Positions 1,557-61,502 of a stretch of DNA of 64,000 bases are shown here, piece by piece. This DNA is from Pomacea canaliculata (Eukaryota). The notes under the pieces were generated by a model. That model was not told the DNA's origin. It saw only the letters and a program-made list of their open reading frames with translations, and did not search any database. Where the stretch lies: NCBI RefSeq assembly GCF_003073045.1, contig NC_037593.1:29329367-29393366 (forward strand), read 5' to 3'. Numbering within the stretch: the first letter of the stretch is position 1; every line of letters begins with the position of its first letter. The position numbers and the translations under genes are program-made.

Positions 1557-1797
1557 CTGCCTTAGGAAAGGCCAACACAAAGATGTCATCATCCCGAAGC
1601 GGTAGTTTGCGGAGAGCGGCAGCATGATCCTCCCAACTCTTTGGAGGACACTTTGCAGGAACTGGCCAACCCTCCAGAACATAGGAGAGAGGTCGAGGGT
1701 CTTGACCCCAGTAGATAAAGGATCCAGTCGGGGCTTCGTTCTGAGCATCAGCTGTGCTCTGGCCATCGGGAGCAGCCTCAGCCGACTGGAAAGACAT
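1557..1797 (-). CDS. SULT-1 (local label) cytosolic sulfotransferase, coding exon 1 of 5 (gene truncated by window start; exons 3-5 lie beyond position 1)
   Basis: ATG at 1797 (minus). Encodes 'MSFQSAEAAPDGQ..FIYWGQDPRPLSYVLEGW..LRDDDIFVLAFPKA(G)'. GT donor after split Gly codon (phase 1). Matches ORF 1537..1797. Confidence 0.75.
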
Positions 1798-3217
1798 GCC
1801 GGTATGTCTGCAGGTCCTGCTTCAGTGACAAAGAATAATTTCTCTCAGGTTTTAGTTCAACAATTATCTCGTGTTTATTCTCTCGACTCCTCTAAATGAC
1901 AAATAATTTGATAATAACTAAAGTTTATGAAACATACCTACCGCGTTCAAAAACTGCTGTAAATTATGTCTTGAAACCGCACCCTTTTCAGTAGAGGCTA
2001 GCAGATGTTAACCCTTTTGGGGAAACCATTCATGCGATTCAATCTCCGAAGACGATCCTCAGTTTAGGAGAGCAGTGTTGATGGGCATTAAATGCATGAG
2101 TAGAAGATAAACCACATGAATAAAATGTTGCCGGATGTTTTCGCTTGTTGGAGTCTGCGAATCAAATGGCTGGTCAAGAAACCCTTGATCGCTCACGTGA
2201 GCAGGCGAGCCTGCATACACACTGTGTCGCAATCGTGTCACATCCAGGCACGTGATTCTTTTAATATTGTATCGCACGTGATCATACAGTACCGATAGCA
2301 AAAACACAAATCATGTAACTTTATTCTTTACCTCTCTGATGTCACCTGATAAAGACTGCCAGGCCGTCACGTCAATCACGTGACTCAAACCACATCTCTC
2401 ACAACTTGCGGCTGACCTTTATCACCTTTGTCAACTCCATCACCAGTTTAGTGATGAATGTCAACTGCTGCTCTGTGCGCGCGCCATTGCGATGGGATGT
2501 CTTGTTTCTGTATTTTCGAGCGTTGATGAATGCAAGGTTTGTGGAGAGTTGTAGCACCATGCTAGCCAGGTAGCTGCACTGATTGTAGAAGATGTTCATC
2601 CGCTAAGCCGTCAATTCAATCAGCAAATAATCATCATCTTTTTCCTAACTTTCCCCAGTTTACTTTCCTGTCGCCTTGGTTATCTAGTTTCTGTCTGAGT
2701 GCAATAAACTATCTCAGCAAGCACATATCGGAGGGGATAGAAAACTGGTGTCTGAAACCAGAGGCGCACCGTTTCAAAACCCTTGTAGCACAGCAAACAT
2801 TCTCTCAATCGACACAGCTGTCAGAGATGGGCACACGACTTCACAGAGAGTTGAGGCAATAAGAAGAAGGAAAAGGCAACCGTTCTCACAAAAACAAGTC
2901 CCAAAGGAAAGTGAGTTGTCTAACATTTTCCTCCCCAAAAGATCGGAAGAGGATAGCAGGCAACCTTGATCATTTATACAACATTAGTACAGTCATCGTA
3001 GTAACCCTCGTCGCTGTTATCCTCATCATAAAGACACAGATTCATACAATTTTCGGATCATTTATTAACATTCGCTATGTGTCCATATATTTTCATCCAA
3101 TGCACTCCAATGTGTTCTGTCATGCGAGACACACGTTGTTAACCAACTGCATCAAACGCTCATATGAAATGAGTAAAGTTCGCGAGCGTTTGATGGAAAC
3201 CTATACCAGGTCATAGT

Positions 3218-3327
3218 TCACGAATATTGAAGAACATATGGCAATCCTTCCATCCGTTCTTTAATGATGGCGTCCATTTTTTCGCTCATGGCCACCGTGA
3301 AGTAGTTCTTCCAGTCTCCTATCTCCC
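3218..3327 (-). CDS. SULT-2 coding exon 5 (3'-PB '[13 protein letters not shown]' and C-terminus)
   Basis: '(G)[35 protein letters not shown]'. TGA stop at 3218-3220. 110 nt. Sum of exons = 984 nt = 328 codons. Confidence 0.8.
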
Positions 3328-3360
3328 CTTCAAGAATACAAGGATTGGGATATGGTTAGA

Positions 3361-3470
3361 GAGCATTACAAATTGACACACGCACACCGTCTCGCTCTCT
3401 GTCTCTCTTTCTCTCTCGCTCTCTCTCTCTCTGTCTCTTTCAACGCGCTTCGTATTCATCCACACAATTT
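3361..3470. repeat. Imperfect (CT)n/(CTCTGT)n microsatellite in SULT-2 intron 4
   Basis: 'cgtctcgctctctgtctctctttctctctcgctctctctctctctgtctctttc'. Confidence 0.8.
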
Positions 3471-3560
3471 CCTTGTGCGCTGACCGGTAAAAAAAAATTA
3501 TTTTAAAGTGCATTCATTGAGAAATATTTAGCATTTAATGCTGGCACAGCTGTGACTGAC

Positions 3561-3756
3561 CTTTTCGATAAAACTTGGAGTAATTTTTCTTCTTATCTCC
3601 ATCTTCATCTTTATCTGGAGGACGCACGGGCACTTTGAGTTCTGCCCCCTTCTTCAAGTTGTTGAAGCTGCAGGCGTCGGCGATCTCTTCACACAGAGAG
3701 TCGCTGACATTCAGCTCCAAGAAAACAGCCAGCTTCTTCACATTTTCAACAGGGTT
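3561..3756 (-). CDS. SULT-2 coding exon 4
   Basis: 'tctcatag|AACCCTGTTGAAAATGTG'. 'NPVENVKKLAVFLELNVSDSLCEEIADACSFNNLKKGAELKVPVRPPDKDEDGDKKKNYSKFYRK(G)'. GTCAGT donor. 196 nt. Confidence 0.8.
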
Positions 3757-4043
3757 CTATGAGATAACAACGAAAATATGTCAGCAATGAAATAAAGGGT
3801 TTCAGCAGCTTTAGACACGTGTAAAAATCCTGCTCTTGCCCAATGTCTTTCTTTGTGTGAACGAAATGACAAACGGATGTCGATGAACTTATATTACAAT
3901 ATTATTATTATACGTAGAAAAAGATATAAAAAAGATTTAAAACAAAACGAATATTGGCTCAGCAGACGTTAGGAATTTGTTTTAATTGTTGGATCATCAA
4001 CATCAGTCGTGTATGGGGGTGGGAGACTTGTACATGCACTAAC

Positions 4044-4147
4044 CTTTTTCATGTCTTCGAAAGACAATGACAGCATAGGCATATCTTTGTTCTCTACAGT
4101 GAATGTGAAAACTTGTTTAAGGTGCGTGAAGTAGTTGCCGTGGTTGC
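4044..4147 (-). CDS. SULT-2 coding exon 3
   Basis: 'tttccag|GC..' acceptor. '(C)NHGNYFTHLKQVFTFTVENKDMPMLSLSFEDMKK'. GTTAGT donor. 104 nt. Phase 1 to phase 0. Confidence 0.8.
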
Positions 4148-4566
4148 CTGGAAAGAGATAATATATAATCAATGAACAAACAACATCTGTCCTAGCCCTT
4201 TCTAGAAGTATCCGCGGCTTTAAGACCCAATGTGAAATATTTGACCAAGTTTGGAAACGCCTTTACATGGCGGTTATATCAAACACATGTGTTCTTTCAT
4301 GCGAGACGCACGTTAATAAAAATGTAAAAGTGTCATCTCGGAGCCTCAAGGAACAACTGTAAAAAAAAAAATGCTACAATAGGCAGCAACTACAGGTTCA
4401 TCTTGCTTACACTATAAGTGTAAACAAGTAAACAAAGAATGGAAAAGAGAGAGATTGAAAGGAGATATACACCAGTTACAAGAAATGTGTGGACTGAGCA
4501 CTCGCTAATATGACTGTTGCGGGAAGTAAACTATACCCATCAGGGAAAAGCAATATTATCACTAAC

Positions 4567-4893
4567 ATTCTTCTTGGAAGAACAGATCGCAGAAGTCCTT
4601 GAACTCCATGCCATGCACCACGTTGTCCTCGTTGCCACCGAGGTGGTGGTAGTAGGACACGCACGAGTCCTTGGGGTTGCGGTACACGAACACTACCTTC
4701 GTCCTTCGCTCCTTCATCTGTTGCCATGGCAGCATAAAGAAAGGCAAATGTGAGTTAAGGACTCGGGGGGAAGGCATGGAGGTCAGTTTGTCCAGCTCGG
4801 TCATCTCGACCATCAAATGCTCCTTGGGGCGAACATCATACTCAGCCTTCCCCTGCATCAGCATAGAGATCACCTCCCACAGCCAGTGAGTTC
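4567..4893 (-). CDS. SULT-2 coding exon 2
   Basis: Acceptor 'ctgcag|GAACTCACTGG'. '(G)THWLWEVISMLMQGKAEYDVRPKEHLMVEM..NSHLPFFMLPWQQMKERRTKVVFVYRNPKDSCVSYYHH..FFQEE(C)'. GTTAGT donor. 327 nt. Matches ORF 4562..4873. Confidence 0.85.
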
Positions 4894-5186
4894 CTGCAGT
4901 TGGAGTCGTCCCAACATTTTAATTCGTTGGACATCATTTCTTTGAACGGTGTATATATCATATATAATTCTTCTTAAAACACAGAAAAAAAGATATCTCC
5001 ATATTTTATATTTTCATGCTTTATTACTTGTTTAATGACTTTAAATTATAGTTTTGTTCGAGTTGCTATACAGAGCTACTTGAGGTAAAGCCACTTTACA
5101 GACCAGCTTTAGAATAAGCCACTAAAGAGACCTACTTTTGGATATACCAATATAGAAACCTGCTGTTAAAAGGTCTCTATACAAAC

Positions 5187-5433
5187 CTGCTTTAGGATAG
5201 GCTAACACAAAGATGTCATCATTTCGGAGAGGCAATCTACGAAGTGCGGTAATGTGAGCCTCCCAACTCTTTGAACCTCGACAGTGTGGGGGAAGAGCCC
5301 ACCCCTCAAGAATGTATGTGAAAGGTCGAGGGTCTTGACCTAGAAAGCGTAAGGTGCCAGCCGGGATGTCCTCCTTAGCATCAGCCTTGGTCTGGTCGCC
5401 TGAATCCTCCTCCTCCTTCTGAATGGAAGACAT
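5187..5433 (-). CDS. SULT-2 cytosolic sulfotransferase, coding exon 1 of 5
   Basis: ATG at 5433 (minus) 'MSSIQKEEEDSGDQ..FLGQDPRPFTYILEGWALPP..LRNDDIFVLAYPKA(G)'. GTTTGT donor. Phase 1. Confidence 0.75.
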
Positions 5434-7195
5434 GCTGGCACGTCTGCACGTGCTGCTGCACCAGACGAGTTTCATGTTAGTTCAACAGTTTCCGTGGGCG
5501 CAGAGACTTACAGATTTCATTCACATGCACTGTCTCTTTCTTCATCTCATTCACACTCACTTGAGTGTCTGTCTATCACTATCTCTCACTCACACACTCA
5601 TTCTCTCTCTTTTTTTTTTTTTGTCTGAAATGCTCGTGTAAAGGAACATTGTAACATGCATCTACAGTCTCTGAAGAAAATAAGTTAAATCAAGATATTT
5701 ATTTGAACTAGCCACTACATAATGACAGGTGAGATTCAAGGTGATGAAGACAGATACAAACAGACAGCAAGAATAAACTTTAGAAACAAAGAGAGTCGAG
5801 AGTCTTTGACCGGATAAGACAATATACACATCGCCGCATGTATCACACTCATTCAAAGCTTCCCTGTACTAAAATACTAAACTATCTCAACAGTCATTCA
5901 CTTTAATATACTTTGATGGGTTCCTCGAAAAAATATGCTTAGTTTTAGAATTAAGGCGAATAAGGAAGCAAAGGTGAATGTAAGGCTTACAAACCACACG
6001 CAAGCGAGCGGATACCAGTTGTGGTGTAATGCAACCACTTCACTATGGCGGACGCAGACAGAAGCAGACGTCAACCAAAGCCAATGGTGGAATAATCTTT
6101 CCTACGATGATTTCTGAAAAAGCTGCAAAGTCGTGTCGCGCGGTGCTGGTGGTCGTTAGACAGTCTGTTAGGCGGCAAATGGAAATGTGTAACAAACTGC
6201 CCGCCGCCCTCGACTACAGGCCGAGCCGCTGAGCTGCTTTTCCGCCTGTGTCAAGACTGTGTAGCGTGTTTCTGTCACGTGATTCTATGAATAGCGCACA
6301 CTCACGTCATGTGACTCGTTCTGACATCACGGCTTTTATCCTGAACTGAATGTCGTCTGCTTTTGTTTGGCGATGAAATGACAGATGTGTGGTGCACGAT
6401 GGGATGTGCTAAGAGGCTCGCAGCATGCTAGATCATCATAGGAGAGGCCGCCATCGATCCGCTGATCGCAGACTGTAGAGGTTGACCTTGATGACCTCGA
6501 TCCGTTACCGCTAGAGCTCATGTCGTCTGCTGCTGGGCTTCTTTGTATCTCGTGGCCATTTGTGGGTCTGTAAACTTAATTGTTGTATGTATGATGAATA
6601 TGTTTATATGCGATTCTGTCGGCAATGACAGGTCGTCTGTGTTCGCGATGTGTGTGTGTCGGCAATGAAAGGTCGTATGTGTTCCTGATGTTCGTGTATG
6701 TCACTGTATTTGTAGCGTGCGTGTGTCTGTGTATGTGTATGTGATGTTGTCTAAGATATGCGTTCCTGTATGTGTGACTGTGTCTGCGATATGCATAATT
6801 GTGGTGTTTGCGTGCATGTGCGTGAGTGTGTATGACGTTAGGGTTTCTTGTGTTTAATATTTAAAGCAAAAAGCAGCTTTATAAATAACAAAGCATAATA
6901 TAAACCAGAGCTATTTTTATTACATGTTGTTCATGCCTTTTTTTTCCGAAACCGCTCTACCTGTAGTCCCGTGGCATATTATTCCACATAATATAGTGCC
7001 TCGGCCTTATCGGAAAATTTTATGAGGGTTGAAATGTTATCTATAAATCTTCAGATTACTAGTCACTCTTGACATCTATTGTTCACACCAGTAATATTGT
7101 AGCCAGCTATTAGTCACCGCCATCTGGAATACAGTAGCCACTGATCGCCATTTTAACACTCGAAATATTGCAGTGATGAGTCTGGATTTAGTTCT

Positions 7196-7305
7196 TTATG
7201 AGTACTGGAGGATGTAAGGAAGGCCTTCCATCTGCTTCTCTATGAATGGGTCAACTCTTTCACTCATAGCTACTGTAAAGTAGTTTTTCCAGTCGCCAAT
7301 CTCTC
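7196..7305 (-). CDS. SULT-3 coding exon 5
   Basis: 'ttttcag|GAGAGATTGGCGACTGG'. '(G)[35 protein letters not shown]'. TAA stop at 7196-7198. Exon sum 993 nt = 331 codons. Confidence 0.85.
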
Positions 7306-7768
7306 CTGAAAATAAAAGAAGGAAAGACTGTATTACAGGCGATAGTTGTTAGGGGGACAGTTTCGTAGAGCATGTCTCAGGATCATTACTTCCAAACACG
7401 CAAACACACAAACACACTGAAGTAACACTAGAGGCAGACAAGCTCTTTTTCCAACCTTTTCTTCAGTGTCTGGTAATTTTGTGCATGTATGATGTTAAAA
7501 TTTTCACTCTTTTTCTAACTTTAAATAGTTCCGAAATGGCTCAGATTATCACCGACCATGTTTAATGATTTCTAATCAAGTGATAAGACTGTCAACGGTC
7601 GAAATTTTTTTCTCTCATTTCTCTTCTCTCTGTGTGTTTACGAGCGAGCACTTAGTCATTGACAAATTGTGTGTTTAATTGATGTGCTTCAAACGATTTT
7701 AAACATGTGACTCAAAGCAAAAACAAAACAAAAATAGAAATCCTTTCTACAATATCGCGCCCTCTGAC

Positions 7769-7982
7769 CTTTTCTGTAAGATCTTGAGTGTCTAGGTTTT
7801 CTTTGTTCGTCGCCATTGACTTCTCTGTTGGGATGATGATGAGGAGGATGGTCGCGGGTTTTGAACTCTGCATTCTTCTTCAGGTTCTCAAAGTTGCATG
7901 CCTCAGCAATGTCTTCACAAATCGCATCGGAAATGTCGATCTCCAGGAATTTTGCCAACTTCTTTACATTTTGTGCGGGGTT
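7769..7982 (-). CDS. SULT-3 coding exon 4 (contains His/Pro-rich variable linker)
   Basis: 'ctcag|AACCCCGCACAAAATG'. 'NPAQNVKKLAKFLEIDISDAICEDIAEACNFENLKKNAEFKTRDHPPHHHPNREVNGDEQRKPRHSRSYRK(G)'. GTCAGA donor. 214 nt. Verified by hand translation. Confidence 0.85.
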
Positions 7983-8229
7983 CTGAGAAGAATACAGGAA
8001 TGAGGAGGTCATGTATGTTATTAAAGAATGGATTTTAGCTAGGGAATATTTCAAAATATATTTAAGCGTAGTGTGATTTAATACGCTATTATTCAAAGGC
8101 ATTGCAGAAATTAAATCTACACTGACATTTCAGGTACATAATAAAAATAAAACATAAAAATAAAAAAGTAATAAGTAAAATTTCTTTAAATTGTGGATAA
8201 TATTATTTATGGTTAAACTGTGAACTAAC

Positions 8230-8333
8230 CTTTTTCATGTCTTCAAAAGACAGAGAAAGTATAGGTACATCTGGATTGTCTCGAGTGAATGCATACATTT
8301 GCTTCATGTACTCGAAGTAGTTGTCAAAGTGTA
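8230..8333 (-). CDS. SULT-3 coding exon 3
   Basis: 'gtttcag|TACACTTTGACAAC'. '(L)HFDNYFEYMKQMYAFTRDNPDVPILSLSFEDMKK'. GTTAGT donor. 104 nt. Confidence 0.8.
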
Positions 8334-8624
8334 CTGAAACAGGGAAATAACTCATGTGAGTAAAACTGCATCACTTAGAAAAATTACCTCCCTTAAATAG
8401 CGTAGTCACTGTGGCTAATCAGCTGTGAGCCTACAGAAAAATACACAGCAATACTTATAAAATGTAACTCGACAGGAGAAATATAATACAGCCATCAGCA
8501 AGAGAGAAAACATAGGAAGAATGTTATAAATGTAACTATAGTCGTGTGCCCTGTATTGTTTTAAAAGTTTAGTCACGTGAAACATGAATGAATCATACAG
8601 AAATATGCAGAAAACCATGCCCAC

Positions 8625-8951
8625 ACTTTCCGTAGAAGTACAGCTCCAGATAATCGCTGAAGACCATGTCATTGAACAAGTCGCCATCTCTTCCTTTCAT
8701 GTGATGAAAATATGACACACACGAATCTTTGGGATTTCGGTACACGTGTAGCACCTTTGACCTTTTCTCCTTTATCTGCTTCCATGGTAACATGGAGAAC
8801 GGTAGGTGTGAGTTGAACATCCTGGGGGAGGGGATTTGCTGTAGTTTGTCAAAGTCACTGAACTCCATCATCAACTGTTCCTTAGGACGACTGTCGTACT
8901 CGGCTGTGCCCCGCACCAGCATAGACAGCACCTCCCACAGCCAGTGAGTGC
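8625..8951 (-). CDS. SULT-3 coding exon 2
   Basis: 'ttcccag|GCACTCACTGG'. '(G)THWLWEVLSMLVRGTAEYDSRPKEQLMMEF..NSHLPFSMLPWKQIKEKRSKVLHVYRNPKDSCVSYFHHMKGRDGDLFNDMVFSDYLELYFYGK(C)'. Donor GTGGGC (weak). 327 nt. Confidence 0.8.
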
Positions 8952-9185
8952 CTGGGAAGTTAATAAAATCGTTATTTTATAATCTTTCCCTTTTTCATAG
9001 TGGCATTCATCTAGAATGGTGGAATTAGTAGCTTTACCCCCGCATTAGAAAAATAATTGCTCCCTAGTACTCATTTAAAGGATGATCAAAAACGAGAAAT
9101 AGAAGGGAGCCTATACGGTTTGCTGGGAAGGAGGGAAGAAAGTAGTAGGTCAAGCAGAACGACGACACGACAAGGACTCACGCAC

Positions 9186-9423
9186 CTGCCTTAGGATAGG
9201 CGCAGAGGAAAATGTCGTCGTCACGGAGCTGCAGAGAACGAAGGTTAGCGATGTGAGTCTCCCAACTCGTCAATCGTGGACGTTTCGGGGGGAGTGCCCA
9301 TCCTTCGAGGGTATAATTCAAAGGCCGAGGATCGTCTCCGAGAAAGTTCAAACTTCCAGTCTCGCCAATGAAAGCCTCAGATCCTGTGTCGTCTGCTAGC
9401 TTCTGCGGATTTTCTGACGCCAT
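9186..9423 (-). CDS. SULT-3 cytosolic sulfotransferase, coding exon 1 of 5
   Basis: ATG at 9423 (minus) 'MASENPQKLADDTGSEAFIGETGSLNFLGDDPRPLNYTLEGWALPPKRPRLTSWETHIANLRSLQLRDDDIFLCAYPKA(G)'. GTGCGT donor. Matches ORF 9178..9423. Confidence 0.8.
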
Positions 9424-10989
9424 GTTGTTAGCTTCTCTGAAAGCAAGATTCTGCTGTCGTGTCCGTAATCATGGAAGTAAAATAACAAAATAAAGTCAAA
9501 TAAAAGTTGAATATACAGAAAATATTTCTCATTTTAACTAGCCAAACACCTCGTGATCCACTTTTTACATCGGTACACATGCAGTAAACGATATGGTGAA
9601 CTGTCGATAAACTACTAAACTTTTTATTACGAGGTTCATGTTTGCTGCACTCTTACACAGCAACTGTATCTGTCATGTCAGATTATACAAACAACATTAC
9701 TATTTCCTCTTAGAATGTTTAACCCCTGACCTCTCATCTATAATGTTTCTGCTTTATGAGTTAAATGACAACATCCACAACTGAATGAATGTACACATGC
9801 GAAAAACACATTTTATCAAAGCTTTACGGTCATACCTGACTGACTACGGATAAAGAAGAAAAGGAAGTCCTCGAACACTTGGTCTTCAAGACTCCAGCGT
9901 CTGACTGTATATGCTCTGTGCTGTCTTCTGGTTAAAACTGTTTTCTGTATGATGGTACAGGTCTAGTCCTTGCCCACGGCAAACGTTTGTCACCGTTAAC
10001 TAACCGACACACTCTTTAAATAGCGGGTCGTACTCAATGCTGACCTCAAGGAGATAATGATCTCTAATCAGGTTCTTACATCTCGTTATATCTCTAACTC
10101 TGTGAGATGATTATTTCTGCCTCAGCACTCTTGGCTGGATAATGAGGCTCGCGACAAGATTGCCGCCATTTTGAACTAATTATAAAGTGATCCTGAGTTA
10201 TTTTGTTTTGGAGTATTCTAAATATAAAGTTATTTTTTCATTCGAGAATTTGTCATAAGCAAGAAAAAGAGTTGTGGGTTTTCTTGTGCTGAAAAGATCA
10301 CCTTAACCCTCGTCTCTACTAATCCTAGGGTAAACAAACCCTCTGTCTTATTGAAGACATGTTCTACATGTATTTGGATTGGAGCACCCAGCGTATTTGC
10401 TCACGTGTTGTCAACAAGAACAGTTTCAGAAGTTAAAATTATGTTTATCTTCCTACTAGATTAAATTTGCTTTTACGTATATCAAGGTGAAGGCTCTGAT
10501 TTGTGATAGAAATTTTTTTTTAATTCAGTAAGCACAAAGCATTGCCGTGAGAATATCACCCGATGTGATCTCAGGGTGGGACACATAAAAGCTGGCGGTT
10601 ATAAAGCGGGTCTTTCACACGACGGGTAGGAATTTATGGGTGGGATAGTCGACTGGCTTACTGGAGGAACATGATTTTCTCCAGACAGAAAGTACACACT
10701 AAACGCTTAGCCTCAGAAAATAGTTTAGCATGTCTACAAGCGATGATGTAAAGATATCTTTATTTGCTCTACTTAATGTTGCATGAATTACTCTAAGGTC
10801 ATGAACCGTTAGATGTAAGAGATTACTAATCAGCAAACAGCCCTCGGACAATTATGTTGAAAGATGTCGCTGCGTGTACTGTTATCTTCCGGGTAGACTT
10901 ACAGATAGCTTCTCGGTCAATTCTCGGTTGTAAGACCTGGATCGTCAAGGTTCAAGCGAATCGTGCCACATTTCAACCCATGGCGGTCC

Positions 10990-11075
10990 AGACAGGTAGA
11001 TGTCTATCTGGGAGACTGAGCTACATCTTCAACCTTACAGTCACGTGACGAGGCATGTTTTGACCCCTGAACTAC
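10990..11075 (+). repeat. Solo copy of the GTCACGTGAC-bearing repeat arm (same family as 16223-16610)
   Basis: 'gagctacatcttcaaccttacagtcacgtgacgaggcatgttttgacccctga' matches both arms of the 16.2-16.6 kb element. It also matches the downstream 'ttgacccc(t/c)ga' of the left arm. Confidence 0.5.
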
Positions 11076-12223
11076 GGCCGTCCACCCGTGATTTGTACAA
11101 CTGACCATACTCGCTCTGTTCATGATGTAATTTCTTCGGGGAAAAGATTGAGCACTGCAACCACACTATTCTTTTTCATCGTGCAATAATCTCTCGACAG
11201 TCCGATAAAAAGAACCCAACACAAGAAATGTTGGACTAGAGTCACATACCTGTAACTGCAAGGTTTTATCGTAGATGGGATAAGACCCGAATAGCTTGAA
11301 CTTTCCACCTGTTTGGGGGTTTGTTTGTTTTTTTAGAAATAATTTTAATGGTTTTTACACCTGACAACAAAGATCTCTCAAGGTGGCGGTGGTATTTAGT
11401 GGAGGTGGTGCTTTATTTCATTCGGAAGGAAATCGTAAGATCCCTGTTACTGAAACCTACTGATCCCTGATATGCGGAAAGGATTTCATAGTCTTTACTG
11501 CGCGTTTTTCCAAGATTAAGACCGCCCTCACCTTAAGCCTATTGACCTGAAAAAGGTCATGAGATGACCTGTACCCTTACATTACTGATAGTCCATGTCA
11601 GTATTAATGAGTTGTGATGAAGGATTGCCTGCATAACTCATCGCTGTATAAATATGTGGGCTGTGTGAATATTCTGGTTTATACGGACCGTAAATTATAA
11701 CATGTAATTAATATATAATATTCAACATATAATAAGTTTAAATAGTATTTTCCCAGGTTCCTAGCTGAAAGTGCAGATCTGTACACAAATATTGAAACAG
11801 GAAGACAAGACACAAATTTCTGATATGTATTAATTACCAATATGGTGTATATTATAGAATCGCAAGATATGATCAGCATGAGTATAAATTTATTGACAAA
11901 TTTAAAAACAAACACACACATACACACTCTACATGAAAAAGTCCTTAACAGCAAGCCAGAGAATGAACATACTGTCATCTTTATCATTAGAAAATCTGTC
12001 AACTAAATGAAAGGTCCCATTTATGGTATTTAAATATGTAAATCCGCATATATTCATTTCAGTCTTTGCCTCTAGTCTTGTCTAAGAATGTCATAGCCTG
12101 ATGATCATCACTTGTGTCTGTTCTTGACATCTGGAATAATACAGTTTAATTATCACAACTTGTTTCTGTTCTTGACATCCAAGATACCACACGGAATTGT
12201 TAGTTCAGAGTTAGTTCGTGGCT

Positions 12224-12333
12224 TTAGGAGTATTGTAAAATGTAGGGAAGGCCCTCCATCTTTTCCTCTATGAGGGGATCCACTCTTTCGTTCATTTCTG
12301 CTGTGAAGTAGTTCTTCCAATCCCCGATTTCTC
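12224..12333 (-). CDS. SULT-4 coding exon 5
   Basis: 'ttctag|GAGAAATCGGGGATTGG'. '(G)[35 protein letters not shown]'. TAA stop at 12224-12226. Exon sum 996 nt. Confidence 0.85.
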
Positions 12334-12707
12334 CTAGAAAAAAGTGAAGCAAAGATACTGTGGATTTTATACAAATGGATACATATTTTTTATTTCTTAA
12401 TTATATTTTTACTCTCTCACACTCACACGCACGCACACACACACTCACACGCACGTACGCACACATTCATATATATATAAATACACAACATTTATTCACT
12501 CACTCCAACTCCCATATCCAAATTTATCTACCTATTGGTGGTTTTGCGCAAAGTATTTTGTTAATAGGAGTATGATTAGATTCTACCCTAGAATGTAACA
12601 CCTCTTCACTTCAACTTTCATATCTTTCTTCGTGTTTTTGTGTTGAGAAGGCTTCTTTAAAGTACACAGGATTAAGAAAATTTCTGTAATTTGTCACCTT
12701 GTCTCAC

Positions 12708-12939
12708 CTTTTCTGTAAGCTTCAAAGAAAGGTTTCTTCTTGTCATCGTGTTTTAAATCTCCATGGGAGGTAGGTGTTGAAGGAGGAGTTGGAGGATGAG
12801 GAAAAGGAGGATGTTTCTTAAGTTCCGCATTTATCTTCAAGTTCTGGAAACTACAAGCTTCGGCGATGTCTTCACAAATTTCATCGGAGAGGTCTGTTTC
12901 CAGGAATTTGGCCAACTTTTTCACGTTTTGTACAGGATT
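12708..12939 (-). CDS. SULT-4 coding exon 4 (longest variant of the Pro-rich linker)
   Basis: 'ttttcag|AATCCTGTACAAAACGTG'. 'NPVQNVKKLAKFLETDLSDEICEDIAEACSFQNLKINAELKKHPPFPHPPTPPSTPTSHGDLKHDDKKKPFFEAYRK(G)'. GTGAGA donor. 232 nt. Confidence 0.85.
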
Positions 12940-13281
12940 CTGAAAACTCAGGAAAAGAATACCCATTAAAACGATGAATTACTTGTAAATGTGTTTCTAA
13001 AAATTATCCTTTATTGTTTGGCTTGGCTGTGACTTGAGTGAGGTTTGTCTACTAAGTTTGTTATGACAGGAATGTTTGTATTTGTAATGTAACTTGTTCC
13101 TGGACGAAAAGTGTGGGCTTTTGGGATTATGACAAAGTCAGGTAAGCGTATACACAACCAAATATACACTGCTAAAACTCCTTGAGTATTATTTTCAAAA
13201 TGATTTTGTCAATACTCATGTCGCAGGAAAATAATACCCTTACAAGTTCTGTGAATTATTTTTAAAAATCTGAAAATAAAC

Positions 13282-13385
13282 CTTCTTCATGTCCTCAAAT
13301 GACAGCGACAGAAAAGGTACGTCTGGGTTCTCCAGCGTAAAGGTGAGTACTTGTTTCAGATGTTCAAAATAATTGCCAGAGTCCA
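13282..13385 (-). CDS. SULT-4 coding exon 3
   Basis: 'gtttcag|TGGACTCTGGCAATTATTTTGAACATCTGAAACAAG..'. '(M)DSGNYFEHLKQVLTFTLENPDVPFLSLSFEDMKK'. GTTTAT donor. 104 nt. Confidence 0.8.
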
Positions 13386-14212: not shown

Positions 14213-14539
14213 CTATGGCAACACAACACAATGTTTACACATCGATACATTCCTCTGTGATGTTTAAGTGTTTTTCATCAAGAAGACCTTAGCCAATCAC
14301 CAGAAGCTATTTTTTTTTTTGTGTGAAAAATTCATGTAACAGTAAGACTTGGGACCAGACTATGAAGATCTGAAGGTACAGCAGTGTATATATATATATC
14401 AACCTTTGCCAGTAGGTAAACCGGTGTAGTATTCTCACAATAAGACTAAAGGATGCAAGAATTGATAAAGTGGTGGAATCAAGACAGCGAGATAAAAGAA
14501 AGAAAGAGGAAATGACAGGTGAATCAGCAATGCCCCGAC

Positions 14540-21723: not shown

Positions 21724-21777
21724 CTGGAGCATCAGTAAATGATCTTCAGAATTATTTCAAATGTTCGCATACACACA

Positions 21778-21802
21778 CACTCGTTCTCTCTCTCTCTCTC
21801 GC

Positions 21803-49342: not shown

Positions 49343-50300
49343 GACTTTTTTTATTTGTCACTGTCAGATTTGAACACACCACCTTTCAGTCTTCAGACCT
49401 CGTCTTTAGCCACCAGGCTATACAGCCGTTAGCAACTAACGTGCCTAAACTTCGTGAAAAAGTCAAGTTCGCCGTTTACAACAATCAACAAATCCGCTGA
49501 ACCGAGACGCACACGCCCAGAACCGGTGACGTCATCGACAACGAGGCTGCTGTTAACGAAGATGACTAGTGCACGACGGACCACAAACACCCTGCTACTG
49601 TCCCCCTAGGTCCCTCCAACTGCCAGGAACACACACGTCATACTCAATGGAGTGAACAAGATCGGAGTGACAGACGGCAACAACCTACCCGATCCTCTCC
49701 CCTCCAGACATCATTGTACGCGTGGTCAGAGTTGCCTGCCCAGTCAATGGAGGACATCGAAAACGGACAGCAGTACCCTACAAAGAACACCAACAAGAAA
49801 TAAGTGACAAGATGGCCCGGCCCTCCACAGTTCATGACAATTGCTATCCCATAATGTCGAGGACTGTGTGTGGACGGCAAGACACAATCAAGACAAGGGA
49901 GAGAATAAGTTTCACTGACCCAGTGACTACGCGACACGAGGTGTCCGTGCTAACGGTCACCAGGACACAGCACGGGACTCACCCGTGAAAATATTTCACA
50001 TCTTCAACTGCGACATCGACGGTTTGCTCGTGAAAACACACTATCCTGGCTTTGTACAAAGCATTAACGTGTTTGTTATTGTGTCTTACAGACATTGCTT
50101 GACGTCAGCAGTACACTGCAATGTTTCTCTGACTTCCAACGATACTTCAGTCCTGCTTCTACACTTACATCGCAAGGAAGAGCTGCCGGCCGATATCCTT
50201 GTTTTAGTAAAAAATGTATTTAATAAGTTTTTGCATAGACTGCAGTGTACGGTTGACAATTTTATTTTATTGCAATTTGACACCGAGTTTAACGAGACAA

Positions 50301-51293
50301 GTAGTTTACTGGCATGGACTCCTGTAGCCTACTGGCCGAAGTGGCTCATCATGTCTAGAGTACGCCCCGTGGAAAGCGGAATCAAAGCTTTCCCTCCTCC
50401 ACATTTACATCTGTAAGCTTTGTGTGTGTGTGTGGGTGCGTGCGTGCGTGGATGAGAGAGAGAGAGGGTGTGTGTGTTCTAGAGAGTGAGCGTTCTCTCT
50501 CTCTTTCAAGTCTCACTGGAGGGGTGCACGCATGTGTGTGTAAGAAAGAGCAAGATCACATTAAAAGAAATCCGTGATGACGCTCAATAAATAAATAACT
50601 AAATCATTATTCACCTTTCGATTTGTAACCGCATAAAATTCTAGAATGTGGAAAGGGATGGACTGCGGGTCAGCATTCATATGAAGACTGTTTTTCTACT
50701 CTCACCATCATGACAAGTGATCACTTGTTAGGATTTTCGAAACAAGTGAGATCACATCAGAGTTTGAAAAATATCAGTCTCATCAAAATAACCGACCTGA
50801 GGTCACTTGTAGGCGGCCATCTGGATGCACATCAAACACATGAACAGATGGCTGGCTTTATGCTTACAAACACTACCTGATGGAACATTACATGTGGAAA
50901 CACAGTGGCTAGTCAAGCAGCTAGTCCATCATGCCTTTGGCTTGAGTTTGTACTGAGCAACGCAAGCACTCGTAACCAAGCTAGCTATGTGCTAGCATAA
51001 TGCTTGGCATGGCCAGGATGAACAGACAAACAAACAAGCTAGCTATGTTCTAGCATAATGCTAGGCATGGCCAGGGTGAACAGACAAACAAACAAGCTAG
51101 CTATGTGCTAGCATAATGATTGGCATGGCCAGGGTGAACAGATAAACATGAATAAATGAGCGAAGTAGTTTACTGGCATGGACTCCTGTAGCCTACTGGC
51201 CGAAGTGGCTCATCATGTCTAGAGTACGTCCCGTGGAAAGCGGAATCAAAGCTTTCCCTCCGCCACATTTACATCTGTAAGCTTTAAATAGCT
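50301..51293. repeat. Two ~128-bp direct repeats (50301-50428 and 51166-51293) flanking a ~60-bp x3 tandem minisatellite (50940-51140) and (TG)n/(GA)n tracts
   Basis: 'agtagtttactggcatggactcctgtagcctactggccgaagtggctcatcatgtctagagtacg(c/t)cccgtggaaagcggaatcaaagctttccctcc(t/g)ccacatttacatctgtaagcttt' occurs twice. Between them, 'caagctagctatgtgctagcataatgcttggcatggccagggtgaacagacaaacaaa' repeats three times. Confidence 0.8.
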
Positions 51294-52350: not shown

Positions 52351-53040
52351 TGCGAGAGAGAAAGAAGGATAATCGTGAAGGAGTGAATAAAACTTACATT
52401 TGAGAAACACCTCCAAGAAAAGACAAACGTATAGTTCAGAATAAACGCAAAAATAAAAACGGTATCTTGAGAGAATGTCGATGCTAGATATCAGATATCA
52501 GATATAAATTATAGCAAATTGTATTGAAACAGATTTTCAATGGTGTGAAGAGACACGCTGGTCATTAGTGTCAAAGTGTCAAATGATACAGTAAATTATT
52601 TAACACCTACATACAGCAAGGTACACGACAGTAAACCCAGACATTATTGTGACTGTCTGTGGTAAAGTTTGTTTTAAATATACATTATTTTTTCATAAAA
52701 TAAGTAAACTATAAGCTAAACTACATCGTCCTCGTCATGTGTCATTTTAAAATTTGGACTGACATGTAGATGTTAAATTGTTACATATTTTTAAAAAGTT
52801 GATTTTGTCAGAGCTTTCTAGCATCAATGCTGTTAAATTACAATAGATAAGTTGATGTGTTTGGCAAAATATGTCGGACTTCTCTATTATATTTTATGTG
52901 AGATATGTTTGCCACATTCCACAGCTGGTCCATGCACAAAAAAACAAATTCCAAATTTCCGAACCCACAGTCCGAACACTTCCACTGTCACACACATCTT
53001 ATGTTCTTCCGACATTCAATTCCCCCTCCCCCCTAAAAAA

Positions 53041-53270
53041 AATCTCCAGTTGAAAATGACACCAAGTCTCCACTTGAATATAACACCAAGTTTCCACTTC
53101 TAGGTAACACAAATATGTCCACTTGAATATAACACCAAGTCTCCACTTGAATATAACACAAAGTTTCCACTTCTAGGTAACACAAATATGTCCACTTGAA
53201 TATAACACAAAGTTTCCACTTCTAGGTAACACAAATATGTCCACTTGAAAGTAACACAAAGTTTTCACTG
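53041..53270. repeat. Minisatellite, ~22-24 bp unit x ~9-10
   Basis: Alternating units 'ccacttgaatataacaccaagtct' / 'ccacttctaggtaacacaaatatgt' repeated in tandem. Confidence 0.8.
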
Positions 53271-57699: not shown

Positions 57700-58760
57700 T
57701 GTGGAGGATCAACCAGACCATCTTATCTGACGTCCCATCTGTCATCGACAGCCACTGCCAGCAGATGCAGGATCATCGATTAAAAACTTGTCCATTCTTC
57801 GAGTGATCAATACAGAGCTTTTAGCAAGATCAACTTTGGATGGACTTTAACAGCTTTCTTATCTGCTAGTTGATAACGGCTCGCAGTTTGTATGTCATCT
57901 CGCCTCTGCCTGTCTGTCCATTGCTAACAGAAGAATTACAGCTATCAGGTTGTGTCCAGTATGTCAGAGTTTTCCCTTCACATGTCGTCTGCTCCATGTT
58001 CTACATTTTGGCCTGTAGACAAGTATGTTTTCATCACCTCCGCTCGAAACCGATACATGCCTCGTTTCTAAGTAAGGCTGTGAAATAGTTGCTGACATGG
58101 TGTAAGACTCCAATTAACTAACCTACAATTAGGCATTGCCACCTGTGGGTCTCTCTCTCTCTTGTGTGTGCATACTTAGTGTTTTGGTAAACATCTAGGA
58201 GAAAATTGTAGTTAAGAGAATAAAACCGAGGCCTGACACAAAGGTCCCATCTGTCATTGCGAACAGATATCAGATTATCTATTAAAATCTTTCTCATTTC
58301 AGTGTGATCAGTGCTGAACTTGAAGTAAGATCCCTATTGGATCGATTCTTGCATCGTTCTTAGCTGCTAGCTGATAAAGGTTTTTTCTGTGTTCGCGTAC
58401 GCCATACACTGTTAAGGCGTCTGGAAAAGGAGTGGTCACGTGACATTACTTTTTTTGTTTTCTCTCGTAATTTGTTGCTGGAGCCGGCCGGTTGTTTGTA
58501 AATTCTTTTTAGTACAAATCTTGATTGATCTTTCTCTCAATAACCTTCGTAGCCTCTTTCATCATTACAAGAAATTTTTTTTTTAATTTTTAAAAAAACT
58601 AACAACCGGTTAATTATGCAATCATTCTATACTAAGAAACGTCAGAGCTTCCCTAAACGATGGTAAAGGACACCGGCTCCTGGACTATCCAGTAAAGAGA
58701 GACAAAATGTTAATCATATATAAATTTCTCAGAATTGTCACTAAGTAAAATTGTTCAAGA
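57700..58760. repeat. Internally tandem-duplicated intergenic block (sub-units ~57700-58100 and ~58250-58760). It is a paralogous copy of the SULT-11 5' flank and intron-1 region (60560-62040), including a promoter-like segment with GTCACGTGAC at 58435-58444
   Basis: 'ggagtggtcacgtgacattactttttttgttttctctcgtaatttgttgctggagccggccggttgtttg' (58431-) vs 'ggagtggtcatgtgacagcattttttttctcttttctcccttcttgcgctggccgcttgtttg' (61691-). 'ggacaccggctcctggactatccagtaaagagagacaaaatgttaatcatatataaatttctcagaattgtcactaagta' (58671-) vs 'ggacgccggctcatgaaccctccagtatagggagacacaatgtgaatcatagacaaatttctcagagttgttgctaagta' (61941-). 'tttcttatctgctagttgataacggct' motifs recur at 57861, 58361 and 60661. Confidence 0.7.
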
Positions 58761-58850: not shown

Positions 58851-58960
58851 TCACGAATACTGTATGACATAGGGCAGGTCTTTCAACTCTTTCTCCACGA
58901 CTGCGTCCATCTGCTCGCTCATGGCCACAGTAAGATAGTTCTTCCAGTCGCCCACCTCTC
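58851..58960 (-). CDS. SULT-11 coding exon 5
   Basis: 'gttccag|GAGAGGTGGGCGACTGG'. '(G)[35 protein letters not shown]'. TGA stop at 58851-58853. Exon sum ~921 nt. Confidence 0.8.
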
Positions 58961-59175
58961 CTGGAACACAAACATACAAAGATTCATTACATCAGGTAGA
59001 TGATAAATCAAACAGGACTTTTTTCTTCATTTTGGATGATATGTTGAAAAATTTATGTCTCGCCATATTGTAACACACTGAGGAAGGTTATTTTTAAAAT
59101 ACCGACAGTCTTCAAAATTTGTCCTTTTTACCATAGTGTGATAGCATTGACAAGTAGCACAATATCCATAATTAC

Positions 59176-59362
59176 CTTTTCTGTACATATTCATCTTTCT
59201 ATGTGGAATATTTTTGCTTTTGGTAAATTCTGGAATGGCTTTCTTCTCATCCTGTTTCTTCATGTTCTGGAAGCTGCAGGCCTCTGCGATTTCTTCACAC
59301 AGTTGCTGTGATGCTGGAACTTCCAAAAACTCAGCAATCTGCTTTACTTTATCTGAGGGACT
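59176..59362 (-). CDS. SULT-11 coding exon 4
   Basis: 'tttttcag|AGTCCCTCAGATAAAGTAAAGCAG'. 'SPSDKVKQIAEFLEVPASQQLCEEIAEACSFQNMKKQDEKKAIPEFTKSKNIPHRKMNMYRK(G)'. GTAATT donor. 187 nt. Confidence 0.8.
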
Positions 59363-59558
59363 CTGAAAAACAAGTTTTATGCAAATATAGACACAATCTA
59401 AATACTAATTCTATATTTGACAAACCACTTGAAAGAGATGTAGACCTAATAAATTCAAATCTCTAAAATATCTCAGAATGGAACCAGAGAATACTGATGC
59501 CTGTTGTCAAGACAAAATTGTGTAAATTGTATCAGAGATTTGCAGTGGCCTTACAAAC

Positions 59559-59662
59559 CCGTTTCATATCTTCAAAGGAGATGGATAATATAGGAATGTT
59601 CGGATTTTCTTGGGTAAAATCGTGAAACTGCCGCAAGTAACTGAAGTAAGCACCATAGTTGA
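59559..59662 (-). CDS. SULT-11 coding exon 3
   Basis: 'tgtttcag|TCAACTATGGTGCTTACTTC'. '(x)NYGAYFSYLRQFHDFTQENPNIPILSISFEDMKR'. GTTTGT donor. 104 nt. Confidence 0.8.
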
Positions 59663-59905
59663 CTGAAACAGAACAAAATGTACAATCCCTTTATTATTGT
59701 AAGTCATCGAATGGAAAGATGAGACAGACAGGGACAGAGAGGGGAAGGCCAAGAAGCAGATACAGAAAGAGTGTAATCAACGTGTAGAACATACCTGTAC
59801 ACATACACACATATATGTGACAAGGGGCAGATAATTTCTGCTGTAAAAGTTACTCGTTTGCTCCCCTTTTTATGCAAAAAAAAATAATAAATCATATTTG
59901 CTTAC

Positions 59906-60223
59906 CTTTGCCATCTAAGAATCGTTGAAAAAATTCTGAAAATTCAACGAATGTATTGAAAAGGTTCTTTTGCATGAAGTAGAAGGATACAACAGTGTCC
60001 TTAGGATTGCGATAAACATGAAGGACCTTGACACGCTTGTCTCTGATCTGTTGCCACGGCAACATAGAAAACGGAAGATGCGTATTGAGGATGCGCGGAG
60101 ACGCCATGGCCGCTACCATGTCCACGTCGACAAAGTCGACCATCAGCTGTTCCTTGCGACGAGTCTCGTACTCGGCCTTGCCTTGCAGCAACATGGAGGT
60201 CACCTCCCACAGCCAGTGAGTTC
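59906..60223 (-). CDS. SULT-11 coding exon 2 (318 nt)
   Basis: 'ttggtcag|GAACTCACTGG'. '(G)THWLWEVTSMLLQGKAEYETRRKEQLMVDFVDVDMVAAMASPRILNTHLPFSMLPWQQIRDKRVKVLHVYRNPKDTVVSFYFMQKNLFNTFVEFSEFFQRFLDGK(G)'. GTAAGC donor. Confidence 0.8.
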
Positions 60224-61300
60224 CTGACCAACAGATATGGACACAGAGTGAGTTGTTGACTAACAAAGATGGACACGCCTAATTAATTCGACATACCGCA
60301 AAATGGGGTTCATATCTCCCACAATAGCCATCTGTCGCAGTCTTGGTCAATGTAACAGGTTAACAATAGTCCTTCCCTCCACAGCAAAAGTTTCTTTTAA
60401 TCACTGAAGATTTCCATGCATACAACCTCAGCTCCATCTCATTGAAGTGAGGGAGGGATCCAAGGGTTAAATTTGTTAATTTTAAAGAGTGGATCTTTTG
60501 TATAAAGAATTTTTTTTTTATTTTGAAGGAATTGGTGGCTGTCAACTATGTGAGGTTCAGTCCTTGCGAGCAGACGGCTGCCATGTCGATTTAAAGCTTG
60601 CCCGTTGTATTTGTGATTGATGCAGATATAGGAACTTTTAAACAAGATTCTAAAGCCAAAACCTTTCTTATCTGATAGTTGATAAAGGCTTTCTTGCACA
60701 CCCACGTGTGTGTGGTGGTGGTGGTGGTGGTAGGAGACAGGTACAGCCATTATGTCCTGCCCCACTTTGCCAGAGCTTTGAAGTACAAGCCGTCTGCTCC
60801 ATGTTCTACATTTTGACCTGTTCATGAAATGTTTTTATTACCCCACCTTCTGATCTTTTCTGGCGTGTTTCATCAGAAAGGCATTACCATTTGTGATTTT
60901 GCTCTCTCTCTCTCCCTCCTTCTCGTGTATGTGTGTATGAATATTTAGGCCCTCGTTATATTTTTAATCAAGAACAAGGGGTGTGCTTATCAAATGAGTT
61001 CGTGCAAACAAGTGTTTGCCAGCAAGCATTCGTGTAAAGGTGAGAAAAATGTGAGGCAATTGTTAGAACTACAGCGAGTAAATCTGCTGAACAGCAGTGG
61101 TCGTGGGTTACCAAATTAAACCTCAGCCTCTTTCTGATCATAGTCAGACGTCTCTCACCTTATTCTGATATCTGTTATTTCCCCCATCAACCTGAGTCCT
61201 ATCTCTCTCTCTCTCTGACCTCTTTCACATCACATCATACTTCACATCAATCTCATCCCTCTCACTACAGTCTGACCCCTCTCAGAGTCGGACATCTTAC

Positions 61301-61502
61301 CTGTTTTGGGGTAGGTACACAGCAGGATGTCATCGTGTCGAAGCTCCATGTTGCGCAGATCATCGATGTGTTTCTCCCACTCCTCTTTGTTAAATCGGAA
61401 ACTGGGCAGAGGAATACCTTCTACCAGCCAGTAAATTGGATCAAGCTTGCCATCTTTCTCGTTTTCCATCTTGAAAGAGCTGTTGTGTTCCTGGCTTGTC
61501 AT
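61301..61502 (-). CDS. SULT-11 cytosolic sulfotransferase (subfamily III), coding exon 1 of 5
   Basis: Probable ATG at ~61502 (minus) 'MTSQEHNSSFKMENEKDGKLDPIYWLVEGIPLPSFRFNKEEWEKHIDDLRNMELRHDDILLCTYPKT(G)'. GTAAGA donor. The ORF track extends upstream to ~61559 with a non-ATG start, so the start is uncertain by 1-2 nt and up to 57 nt. Confidence 0.65.

Follow-up and report, generated by a model that had tools for sequence, protein, structure and literature searches.

A tandem array of cytosolic sulfotransferase genes in Pomacea canaliculata: four clades and a probable two-event history of gene order

Eleven sulfotransferase genes and their annotation

By combining tblastn with splice-site modelling, we located exactly 11 sulfotransferase (SULT) loci, g1 to g11, within the window, i.e. 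the whole 64,000-nucleotide stretch of chromosomal DNA of the golden apple snail, Pomacea canaliculata, analysed here; beyond these loci the same approach found no further SULT exons or coding-sequence relics in the window (Table 1). Reading frames are intact in ten of the 11 genes, each with five coding exons, and g1 is cut by the window edge. Every gene has GT-AG introns of phases 1,1,0,1, and exon 3 measures 104 nt wherever the window includes it. The gene positions and strands given in a first-pass annotation (-,-,-,-,+,-,-,+,+,+,-) were borne out, the peptide motifs that it had quoted for three gene types were found in the gene translations, and the 8-kb microsatellite that it had placed between g10 and g11 was confirmed as (CTCA)x2001. 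The span that it had assigned to the cluster, 1557-61502, begins at the lower boundary of g1 exon 1, ends at the g11 ATG and leaves g1 exon 2 outside.

Table 1. SULT genes and other features of the window.
Feature	Position	Strand	Details
g1, clade Ia, partial	361-1797	-	exon 1 1557-1797, exon 2 361-687; exons 3-5 past window start; first 189 residues of XP_025092658.1 (P0141)
g2, clade Ia	3218-5433	-	exons 5187-5433, 4567-4893, 4044-4147, 3561-3756, 3218-3327; translation exactly P0003 / XP_025090218.1
g3, clade Ib	7196-9423	-	exons 9186-9423, 8625-8951, 8230-8333, 7769-7982, 7196-7305; matches P0071 / XP_025090216.1
g4, clade Ib	12224-14777	-	exons 14540-14777, 13901-14212, 13282-13385, 12708-12939, 12224-12333; identical to P0075 / XP_025090214.1
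g4 upstream 5' exon, inferred	near 16158-16292	-	N-terminus of P0143 (GenBank model) maps to ORF 16137-16361(-)
g4/g5 upstream mirror-image (inverted) homology	15323-17641		centre near 16.41 kb
g5 upstream 5' exon	near 16739-16792	+	isoform X1 (P0145) has its N-terminus in ORF 16631-16891(+)
g5, clade Ib	18057-20457	+	exons 18057-18294, 18938-19264, 19499-19602, 19914-20130, 20348-20457; contained in P0073 / XP_025090205.1; sole plus-strand gene of array's left half
g6, clade II	21614-23417	-	exons 23171-23417, 22684-23010, 22279-22382, 21930-22125, 21614-21723; identical to P0001 / XP_025090222.1
g7, clade II	25394-27469	-	exons 27223-27469, 26510-26836, 26002-26105, 25688-25874, 25394-25506; exact match to XP_025090229.1 (P0132)
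g8, clade III	30567-32758	+	exons 30567-30765, 31277-31603, 31995-32098, 32283-32463, 32649-32758; identical to P0005 / XP_025090231.1
Likely gene-conversion tract, g8 exon 2	31260-31527	+	partner g11 59973-60240, opposite strand
g9, clade III	33645-35451	+	exons 33645-33819, 33953-34285, 34488-34591, 34935-35112, 35342-35451; identical to P0004 (C0Q70_08305)
g10, clade II	38256-40829	+	exons 38256-38502, 38989-39315, 40044-40147, 40319-40514, 40720-40829; exact match to XP_025090227.1 (P0138)
Perfect (CTCA)n microsatellite	41339-49342		between g10 and g11; Tandem Repeats Finder: period 4, 2001.0 copies, 100% matches, 0 indels
Non-coding relic of type III gene 5' part	57749-58747	-	upstream region and part of intron 1; directly downstream of g11
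g11, clade III	58851-61502	-	exons 61301-61502, 59906-60223, 59559-59662, 59176-59362, 58851-58960; identical to P0007 / XP_025090233.1

All 11 genes are already present as RefSeq or GenBank models, and our exons translate to sequences identical with those of P. canaliculata proteins in RefSeq and GenBank. For this cluster the RefSeq models can be relied on. Faults affect three GenBank models: two of them, C0Q70_08302 and C0Q70_08303, are fusions, the former with EF-hand genes in its downstream part, and the third, C0Q70_08306 (P0002), which represents g10, reads through intron 4 and is truncated.

The PF00685 (Sulfotransfer_1) profile matches the proteins of g1 to g10 over its full length (positions 1-254 of 255; E 1e-52 to 1e-58), with scores of 178-196 bits (cutoff 22); for g11 the assignment comes from precomputed annotation. 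The 5'-phosphosulfate-binding loop [YF]PK[AST]GTHW, which crosses the exon 1/2 junction, is present in 12 of 12 proteins, as are N[ST]HLP (catalytic His) and the 3'-phosphate-binding motifs RNPKDxxVS and RKGExGDW[KR]N, the latter three aligning with the corresponding motifs of SULT1B1; the closest solved structure is that of human SULT1B1 (2z5f, E 6e-40). As judged by the full-length profile match and the presence of PAPS-binding and catalytic motifs, the proteins are members of the cytosolic sulfotransferases (PF00685). Going by family membership only, they are likely to sulfonate small molecules, endogenous or xenobiotic, in a PAPS-dependent manner, a putative function.

Vertebrate SULT1 proteins (SULT1B1, PDB 2z5f/3ckl; SULT1A1, 1C2 and 1E1) have the same full-length PF00685 domain, and the phosphosulfate loop, the catalytic His, RNxKDxxVS and RKGxxGDWKN are conserved in the snail genes, whereas the loop reads GTHW in the snail and GTTW in vertebrates. 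Within the snail, the N-terminal extension of clades Ia, Ib and II is ~15-25 residues longer than that of clade III. In SULT nomenclature, identity thresholds of about 45% and 60% apply to families and subfamilies, respectively. In a tree computed without vertebrate sequences, the snail copies all cluster with gastropod sequences, with amphioxus outside, and all are placed in the mollusc-specific part. The RefSeq product names '1B1-like', '1A1-like' and '1A3-like' appear to reflect best hits, not orthology, and should be read as 'SULT1-like'.

Four clades among the paralogues

All SULT trees were built by neighbour-joining only, with bootstrap. In the full protein tree, Ia {g1,g2}, Ib {g3,g4,g5} and II {g6,g7,g10} each have a bootstrap value of 100 and III {g8,g9,g11} one of 98; I+II is grouped at 100 and Ia+II at 70.5. 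The first-pass annotation had sorted the genes into three types, and the protein tree recovers types II and III as clades but not type I (g1-g5), which is monophyletic in only 25.5% of replicates and splits into Ia and Ib. The type I grouping is favoured by exon 1 only: in trees of exon 1 alone it is the commonest grouping, with 51% bootstrap, and in trees of exons 2-5 it appears in 3-23% of replicates. Mean identities are 57.9% for Ia-Ib, 59.0% for Ia-II and 58.4% for Ib-II, and shared derived residues number five for Ia and Ib, the fewest of the three pairings, 12 for Ia and II, and seven for Ib and II. By these comparisons the genes form four strongly supported clades, Ia, Ib, II and III, or two deep lineages, I+II versus III; Ia, Ib and II together form one super-clade with a three-way split without resolved order, and III is its deep sister group.

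Clade III also includes a twelfth paralogue from outside the window. Its topology is ((g11,P0070),g8),g9, with g9 as the earliest-branching member (dS to g8 and g11 of 1.7-2.6). The youngest pairs have dS values of 0.5-0.8, between-clade dS is saturated, and the introns and intergenic DNA of the paralogues are mostly unalignable, short relics aside.

Gene order, strand switches and their possible origin

The shared exon-intron structure, together with the fact that closest relatives are neighbours, identifies the cluster, most of which lies within the window, as a tandemly duplicated array, and neighbour identity in the observed order is above that of random orders (p=0.024). The strand switches between the ATGs of g4 (14777) and g5 (18057; divergent), the stops of g5 (20457) and g6 (21614; convergent) and the ATGs of g7 (27469) and g8 (30567; divergent) agree with the intervals of 14.8-18.1, 20.5-21.6 and 27.5-30.6 kb reported at first pass. 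A fourth switch, convergent, lies at 40829/58851. The proposals that the array is duplicated and phylogenetically substructured, and that some orientation-changing rearrangement must have occurred, are both supported; the insertions after duplication that had also been proposed are unnecessary, as a reversal of g8-g9-g10 plus a reversal or inverted duplication of g5 suffices. Undoing two reversals gives the all-minus order g1 g2 g3 g4 g5 g6 g7 g10 g9 g8 g11, in which every clade is contiguous. Mean neighbour identity is 61.5% in the observed order and 66.2% in the restored one, a value reached by 0/20000 random orders, and the restored order agrees with the clade III topology.

We consider it probable that the locus is a SULT tandem array of four clades that has undergone a two-event rearrangement and occasional gene conversion. 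Local duplications, one after another on the minus strand, would have enlarged the array and left the closest relatives side by side. In a first later event, an inverted duplication or a single-gene inversion would have brought g5 head to head with g4; in a second, one inversion would have turned g8-g9-g10, with breakpoints within 27.47-30.57 and 40.83-58.85 kb. Parsimony is the ground for the two-event scenario. A search for a breakpoint footprint found no inverted repeats linking one inferred breakpoint interval to the other, and assembly quality is uncertain in the right-hand interval because of the implausibly perfect microsatellite there. What emerges is a classification corrected to four clades and, for the gene order, a simple history of two events that can be tested.

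Between g4 and g5, the mirror-image homology consists of three collinear inverted matches: 16132-16267 with 16697-16549 (68%, E 2e-14), 15653-15773 with 17371-17249 (E 2e-8) and 15323-15392 with 17641-17570 (E 4e-7). Its core arms are 55 nt long, 84% complementary and 281 nt apart; the homology is retained across the 5' exons and first introns, and the upstream region of g3 shares it. The g4/g5 intergenic region is likely a bidirectional promoter, a prediction from sequence, with homologous 5' exons. The mirror homology would mark either an inverted duplication or a single-gene inversion; both fit equally, and sequence alone cannot separate them.

At the other end of the array, the relic downstream of g11 matches g11's own 5' region in three collinear, direct segments (57749-58078 with 60558-60882, 58428-58527 with 61690-61778 and 58665-58747 with 61938-62020; E 8e-20 to 2e-9). 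SULT exons are not detectable within the relic, which counts toward tandem growth of the array.

It is conceivable, though unlikely, that there was no block inversion and that g10 (from g6/g7) and g11 (from g8) arose by separate inverted duplication or transposition. The dS values of g10-g6/g7 (0.64-0.77) and g8-g11 (0.57) resemble each other and point to a fairly recent origin, weak collinear g10/g6 upstream homology (E 3e-4, 2e-3) shows that the duplicated unit carried the promoter, and the g4/g5 pair gives direct support for inverted duplication. However, at least two independent events would have to yield the exact mirror order of the sorted array, and the position of g9, the oldest clade III member, between g8 and g10 is left unexplained.

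We give rather little credence to a scheme of three subfamilies (I = g1-5, II and III) whose layout results from inversions and from post-duplication insertion of g10 and g11. In addition to the exon-1 trees, the EGW.(L/V)P. motif common to all five genes g1-g5 favours this scheme, and two direct-repeat copies of 224-258 bp (36840-37063 and 40903-41160, 68.5% identity) lie on either side of g10 and could mark a moved cassette; the full-protein and exon 2-5 bootstrap values and the small number of derived residues that Ia has in common with Ib argue against it. Moreover, one block reversal accounts for both 'out-of-place' genes, and the repeats flanking g11 belong to the relic of a gene's 5' end and are not scars of insertion.

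That the mixed orientation is largely ancestral, e.g. an old head-to-head II/III or I/III pair predating local expansions, seems improbable. Some strand switching could be old, since the closest outgroup cluster retrieved, in the neogastropod Babylonia areolata (L002, CM085435.1 27.38-27.41 Mb), also has mixed orientation, with three neighbouring genes on alternating strands (-,+,-) that are five-exon Sulfotransfer_1 genes like those of Pomacea; but only Pomacea sequences make up the I+II clade (100% bootstrap), and therefore the internal g5 and g10 switches must be lineage-specific, and the interleaving of II and III is left unexplained. Finally, it is very improbable that the g8-g10 block orientation is an assembly error beside the microsatellite: 2001 perfect copies without a variant are unusual for a real long microsatellite and suggest consensus or polishing problems, but N bases are absent throughout the window, the sequence at the left junction (27.5-30.6 kb) is unique and unremarkable, and RefSeq gene models are intact on either side.

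Probable gene conversion in exon 2 and comparison with other molluscs

The occasional gene conversion included in the favoured history is best seen between g8 and g11, where a tract of 268 bp, 17 bp of intron included, has 95.1% identity compared to 78-87% in the other exons; exon 2 dS for this pair is 0.19 versus 0.29-1.37 elsewhere. The longest-run permutation test gave p=0.0005, although the conversion tests ignore substitution-rate variation along the gene, and g8-g11 alone passes multiple-test correction among them. This tract is likely the product of gene conversion, which, acting occasionally and mostly on exon 2, would have led to partial homogenisation of g8/g11, g4/g5 and g6/g10. Both the catalytic His and the 3'-phosphate-binding motif lie in exon 2, and non-synonymous divergence is highest, among the five exons, in exons 1 and 4, which we take to be the substrate-binding parts. 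A broader and rather speculative reading is that exon 2 has been repeatedly homogenised between paralogues, including opposite-strand pairs up to 29 kb apart (g8/g11, g6/g10 and g4/g5), with exons 1 and 4 diverging freely. If true, this would amount to exon-specific concerted and divergent evolution, with the catalytic core kept and the substrate range diversified in an invasive, stress-tolerant snail.

The scallop Chlamys farreri has 83 Sult genes and the oyster 26, and mollusc SULT expansions have been interpreted in terms of xenobiotic or toxin metabolism (PMC5700196). The snail cluster is an event of the same type, in which cytosolic SULT genes have multiplied greatly within one lineage, but its duplications are independent and belong to another lineage. 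Expansions of mollusc SULT families are already known; the cluster, itself annotated before, is an ordinary one of detoxification-type genes, and its significance beyond annotation housekeeping is small. Expanded phase-II detoxification genes may bear on the tolerance of the apple snail to pollutants and to plant or cyanobacterial toxins. Babylonia P0074 is among the nearest non-Pomacea relatives of the snail SULTs, and the genes of the Babylonia cluster are 8 kb or more in length versus 1.8-2.7 kb in Pomacea.

Gene content and annotation of the cluster

A tblastn search with snail proteins placed ten SULT loci with five collinear exon matches each, together with two exon matches at the left edge of the window, and a permissive search (E up to 20) found no extra or decayed SULT exons in the window outside the eleven genes (g1–g11, left to right). 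Splice-junction searching gave GT-AG introns in phases 1, 1, 0 and 1 in all genes, with the exon 2 donor of g3 set by RefSeq XP_025090216.1, and ten unbroken open reading frames of 299–331 codons starting at the annotated start codons. Only exons 1 and 2 of g1 lie inside the window; a fused GenBank model, C0Q70_08302, places EF-hand genes downstream of it, which makes g1 the leftmost member of the cluster.

A protein search with the translated exons 1 and 2 of g5, on the plus strand at 18 kb, recovered cytosolic sulfotransferases of gastropods, several of them Pomacea canaliculata entries from a single 34.7-Mb contig. The translations are identical to P. canaliculata protein entries, whose accessions were obtained by exact look-up; the window is therefore chromosomal DNA of the golden apple snail, and all the genes are already publicly annotated. 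The RefSeq XP models are correct, unlike three GenBank models (within 356–14777 and 38256–40549): C0Q70_08302 merges g2 and g1 with two EF-hand genes (1053 aa), C0Q70_08303 fuses g4 and g3 (530 aa), and C0Q70_08306 (g10; 38256–40549) runs on into intron 4 and has no exon 5. Gene modelling and repeat analysis also bore out the strands, switch intervals, motifs and microsatellite described in the first-pass annotation. Every protein matches PF00685 over the full profile, aligns to human SULT1B1 and retains the catalytic His, the loop that binds PAPS and the two 3′-phosphate motifs. Very probably, all are enzymatically active cytosolic sulfotransferases.

Elsewhere on the same 34.7-Mb contig is a twelfth paralogue, P0070 (XP_025090203.1; 82% identity to g11), a clade III member that the window does not encode. 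An open reading frame just upstream of the g11 ATG is homologous to its N-terminal extension. The cluster probably continues rightward past the window.

Genes and other features of the SULT cluster, in window coordinates
Feature	Position	Strand	Identifier or remark
g1 (clade Ia)		-	XP_025092658
g2 (Ia)		-	XP_025090218
g3 (Ib)		-	XP_025090216
g4 (Ib)		-	XP_025090214
g5 (Ib)		+	XP_025090205
g6 (II)		-	XP_025090222
g7 (II)		-	XP_025090229
g8 (III)		+	XP_025090231
g9 (III)		+	C0Q70_08305
g10 (II)		+	XP_025090227
g11 (III)		-	XP_025090233
g3 upstream exon homology	10948–11067
g4 5′ exon	~16158–16292	-	mapped from N-terminus of P0143, a GenBank model
g5 5′ exon	~16739–16792	+	mapped from N-terminus of P0145, g5 isoform X1
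Intron 4 3′ end, g2 vs g6	3328–3437; 21724–21834		80% across 201 bp, exon 5 included
Intron 4 3′ end, g6 vs g7	21724–21771; 25507–25554		92–94%
Direct repeat bracketing g10	36840–37063; 40903–41160		68.5% identity, E 6e-32
(CTCA)n array	41339–49342		8004 bp, exactly 2001 copies
131-bp direct repeat	50291–50421; 51155–51285		96% identity, 864 bp apart
Listed tandem repeat intervals	50977–51148; 53038–53269
Probable relic downstream of g11	57749–58747	-
Open reading frame upstream of g11 ATG	61299–61661

Four clades of SULT genes

The first-pass annotation had sorted the copies into three types: I (g1–g5), II (g6, g7, g10) and III (g8, g9, g11). In a neighbour-joining tree (Kimura distances, 200 bootstraps) of the eleven proteins, with g1 at full length, P0070 and 26 other sequences, type II was recovered in 100% of replicates and type III, with P0070, in 98%. 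Type I appeared in only 25.5% and split into clades Ia (g1, g2) and Ib (g3, g4, g5), each with 100% support; Ia joined type II in 70.5%, and types I and II together formed a group in 100%. Mean identity is 57.9% between Ia and Ib, 59.0% between Ia and II and 58.4% between Ib and II, and Ia and Ib share the fewest derived residues (5, versus 12 for Ia and II and 7 for Ib and II). In exon-wise trees, type I was favoured by exon 1 only (51%), while exons 2, 4 and 5 favoured Ia with II (55–61%); for exon 5, the DNA of g2 is 82–85% identical to type II versus 67–70% to Ib. These results show types II and III to be real and type I to be a composite of two lineages, which the first-pass annotation had united through N-terminal resemblance. 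The cluster thus consists of four clades.

Between g2 and g6, and between g6 and g7, intron 4 can still be aligned at its 3′ end. These intron 4/exon 5 matches suggest that the exon 5 region was converted between clades Ia and II or that the two clades share its origin.

Within clades, dS is 0.51 for g1–g2, 0.70 for g4–g5, 0.64–0.79 within II and 0.57 for g8–g11, rises to 1.4–2.7 for g3 and g9 against their own clade mates, and is saturated between clades; dN/dS is well below 1 in within-clade pairs. When the window was compared with itself, similarity lay nearly all within exons, and masking these left few short non-coding matches. The paralogues are old duplicates under purifying selection, not products of recent segmental duplication.

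Exon 2 departs from this pattern in three pairs. Its dS is 0.19–0.37 in g8–g11, g4–g5 and g6–g10, versus 0.95–1.05 in other pairs of the same clades, with identities of 95% over 268 bp (17 bp of intron included), 92% over 309 bp (45 bp of intron included) and 89%, respectively. Exon trees conflict accordingly: exon 2 groups g4 with g5 (95%) and g8 with P0070 (63%), whereas exons 1 and 4 group g3 with g5 (72–78%) and the remaining exons group g11 with P0070 (97–100%). In a longest-run permutation test, g8–g11 gave p=0.0005, which survives correction for 45 pairs, and g4–g5 and g6–g10 gave p of about 0.004; gene conversion in exon 2 is likely for g8–g11 and only suggested for the latter two pairs.

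Strand layout and its history

The strand-switched layout had been ascribed to inversions and insertions after duplication. When the block g8-g9-g10 is reversed, the order becomes g6 g7 g10 / g9 g8 g11, all on the minus strand and with every clade contiguous. This order agrees with the clade III topology ((g11,P0070),g8),g9 and lifts mean neighbour identity to 66.2%, compared with 61.5% in the observed order; not one of 20000 random orders did as well. Two events would be enough to give the present layout from a sorted all-minus array, with insertion unneeded: first, g5 would have arisen head to head with g4, by inverted duplication or by tandem duplication and a one-gene inversion; second, the block g8-g9-g10 would have been reversed once. 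The case for this history is one of parsimony, because no inverted repeats were found (E<1e-4) linking the inferred breakpoint intervals at 27.47–30.57 kb (left) and 40.83–58.85 kb (right).

For the first event, the upstream regions of g4 and g5 show three collinear inverted matches (E 2e-14, 2e-8 and 4e-7), with core arms of 55 nt each spaced by 281 nt. Together with the mapped 5′ exons, these make g4 and g5 mirror copies down to a common promoter region under 450 bp long. The homologous, mirror-oriented 5′ exons (16132–16697) imply a predicted shared bidirectional promoter. Since g4–g5 also has the lowest dS within Ib, inverted duplication is the preferred reading of the pair; tandem duplication followed by inversion of one gene could equally account for it. 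The same upstream homology is present at g3 in tandem orientation.

The first-pass annotation correctly describes an ordinary tandem gene family and needs the four-clade correction and this simpler history of two reversals. Molluscs are known for large, lineage-specific expansions of SULT genes, with 83 genes in scallop, tied to toxin transformation (PMC5700196). In a related snail, Babylonia areolata, a locus at CM085435.1 27377350–27405447 carries three Sulfotransfer_1 genes (-,+,-) within 28 kb, so Pomacea is not alone in having a SULT cluster with strand switches; the Littorina and Batillaria loci each showed one gene within ±10 kb and were uninformative on synteny. No paper on the P. canaliculata cluster itself turned up in a literature search, yet its genes were already in public annotation.

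A probable relic, repeats and gene-free DNA

Just downstream of g11, and in the same orientation, lies a segment that is collinear with the upstream region and intron 1 of g11 itself. Permissive tblastn found no coding exons in it, and a stretch of about 450 bp in which exon 1 would fall is absent; the segment is probably what remains, in decayed form, of a partial tandem copy. Direct repeats flanking g11, considered as insertion marks, were rejected as such, since they belong to this collinear relic of the gene's 5′ region.

A two-copy direct repeat brackets g10, its downstream copy beginning 74 bp past the stop codon. It could be what is left of the 3′ flank of a type II copy since lost, the boundary of a duplication unit or an interspersed repeat. 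The (CTCA)n array, which falls within the inferred right-hand breakpoint interval, matches at 100% without a single indel. An 8-kb run this pure points to an artefact of assembly or polishing or, failing that, to a length that should not be trusted.

In the intergenic DNA of the window, 49.3–58.8 kb included, the ten longest open reading frames gave no Pfam match to other genes or transposon proteins, and no tRNAs or Rfam families were found. The gene-free 49–59 kb region contains a 131-bp direct repeat, a 58-bp tandem repeat in three copies and a 24/73-bp tandem repeat, which may be decayed mobile-element remains.
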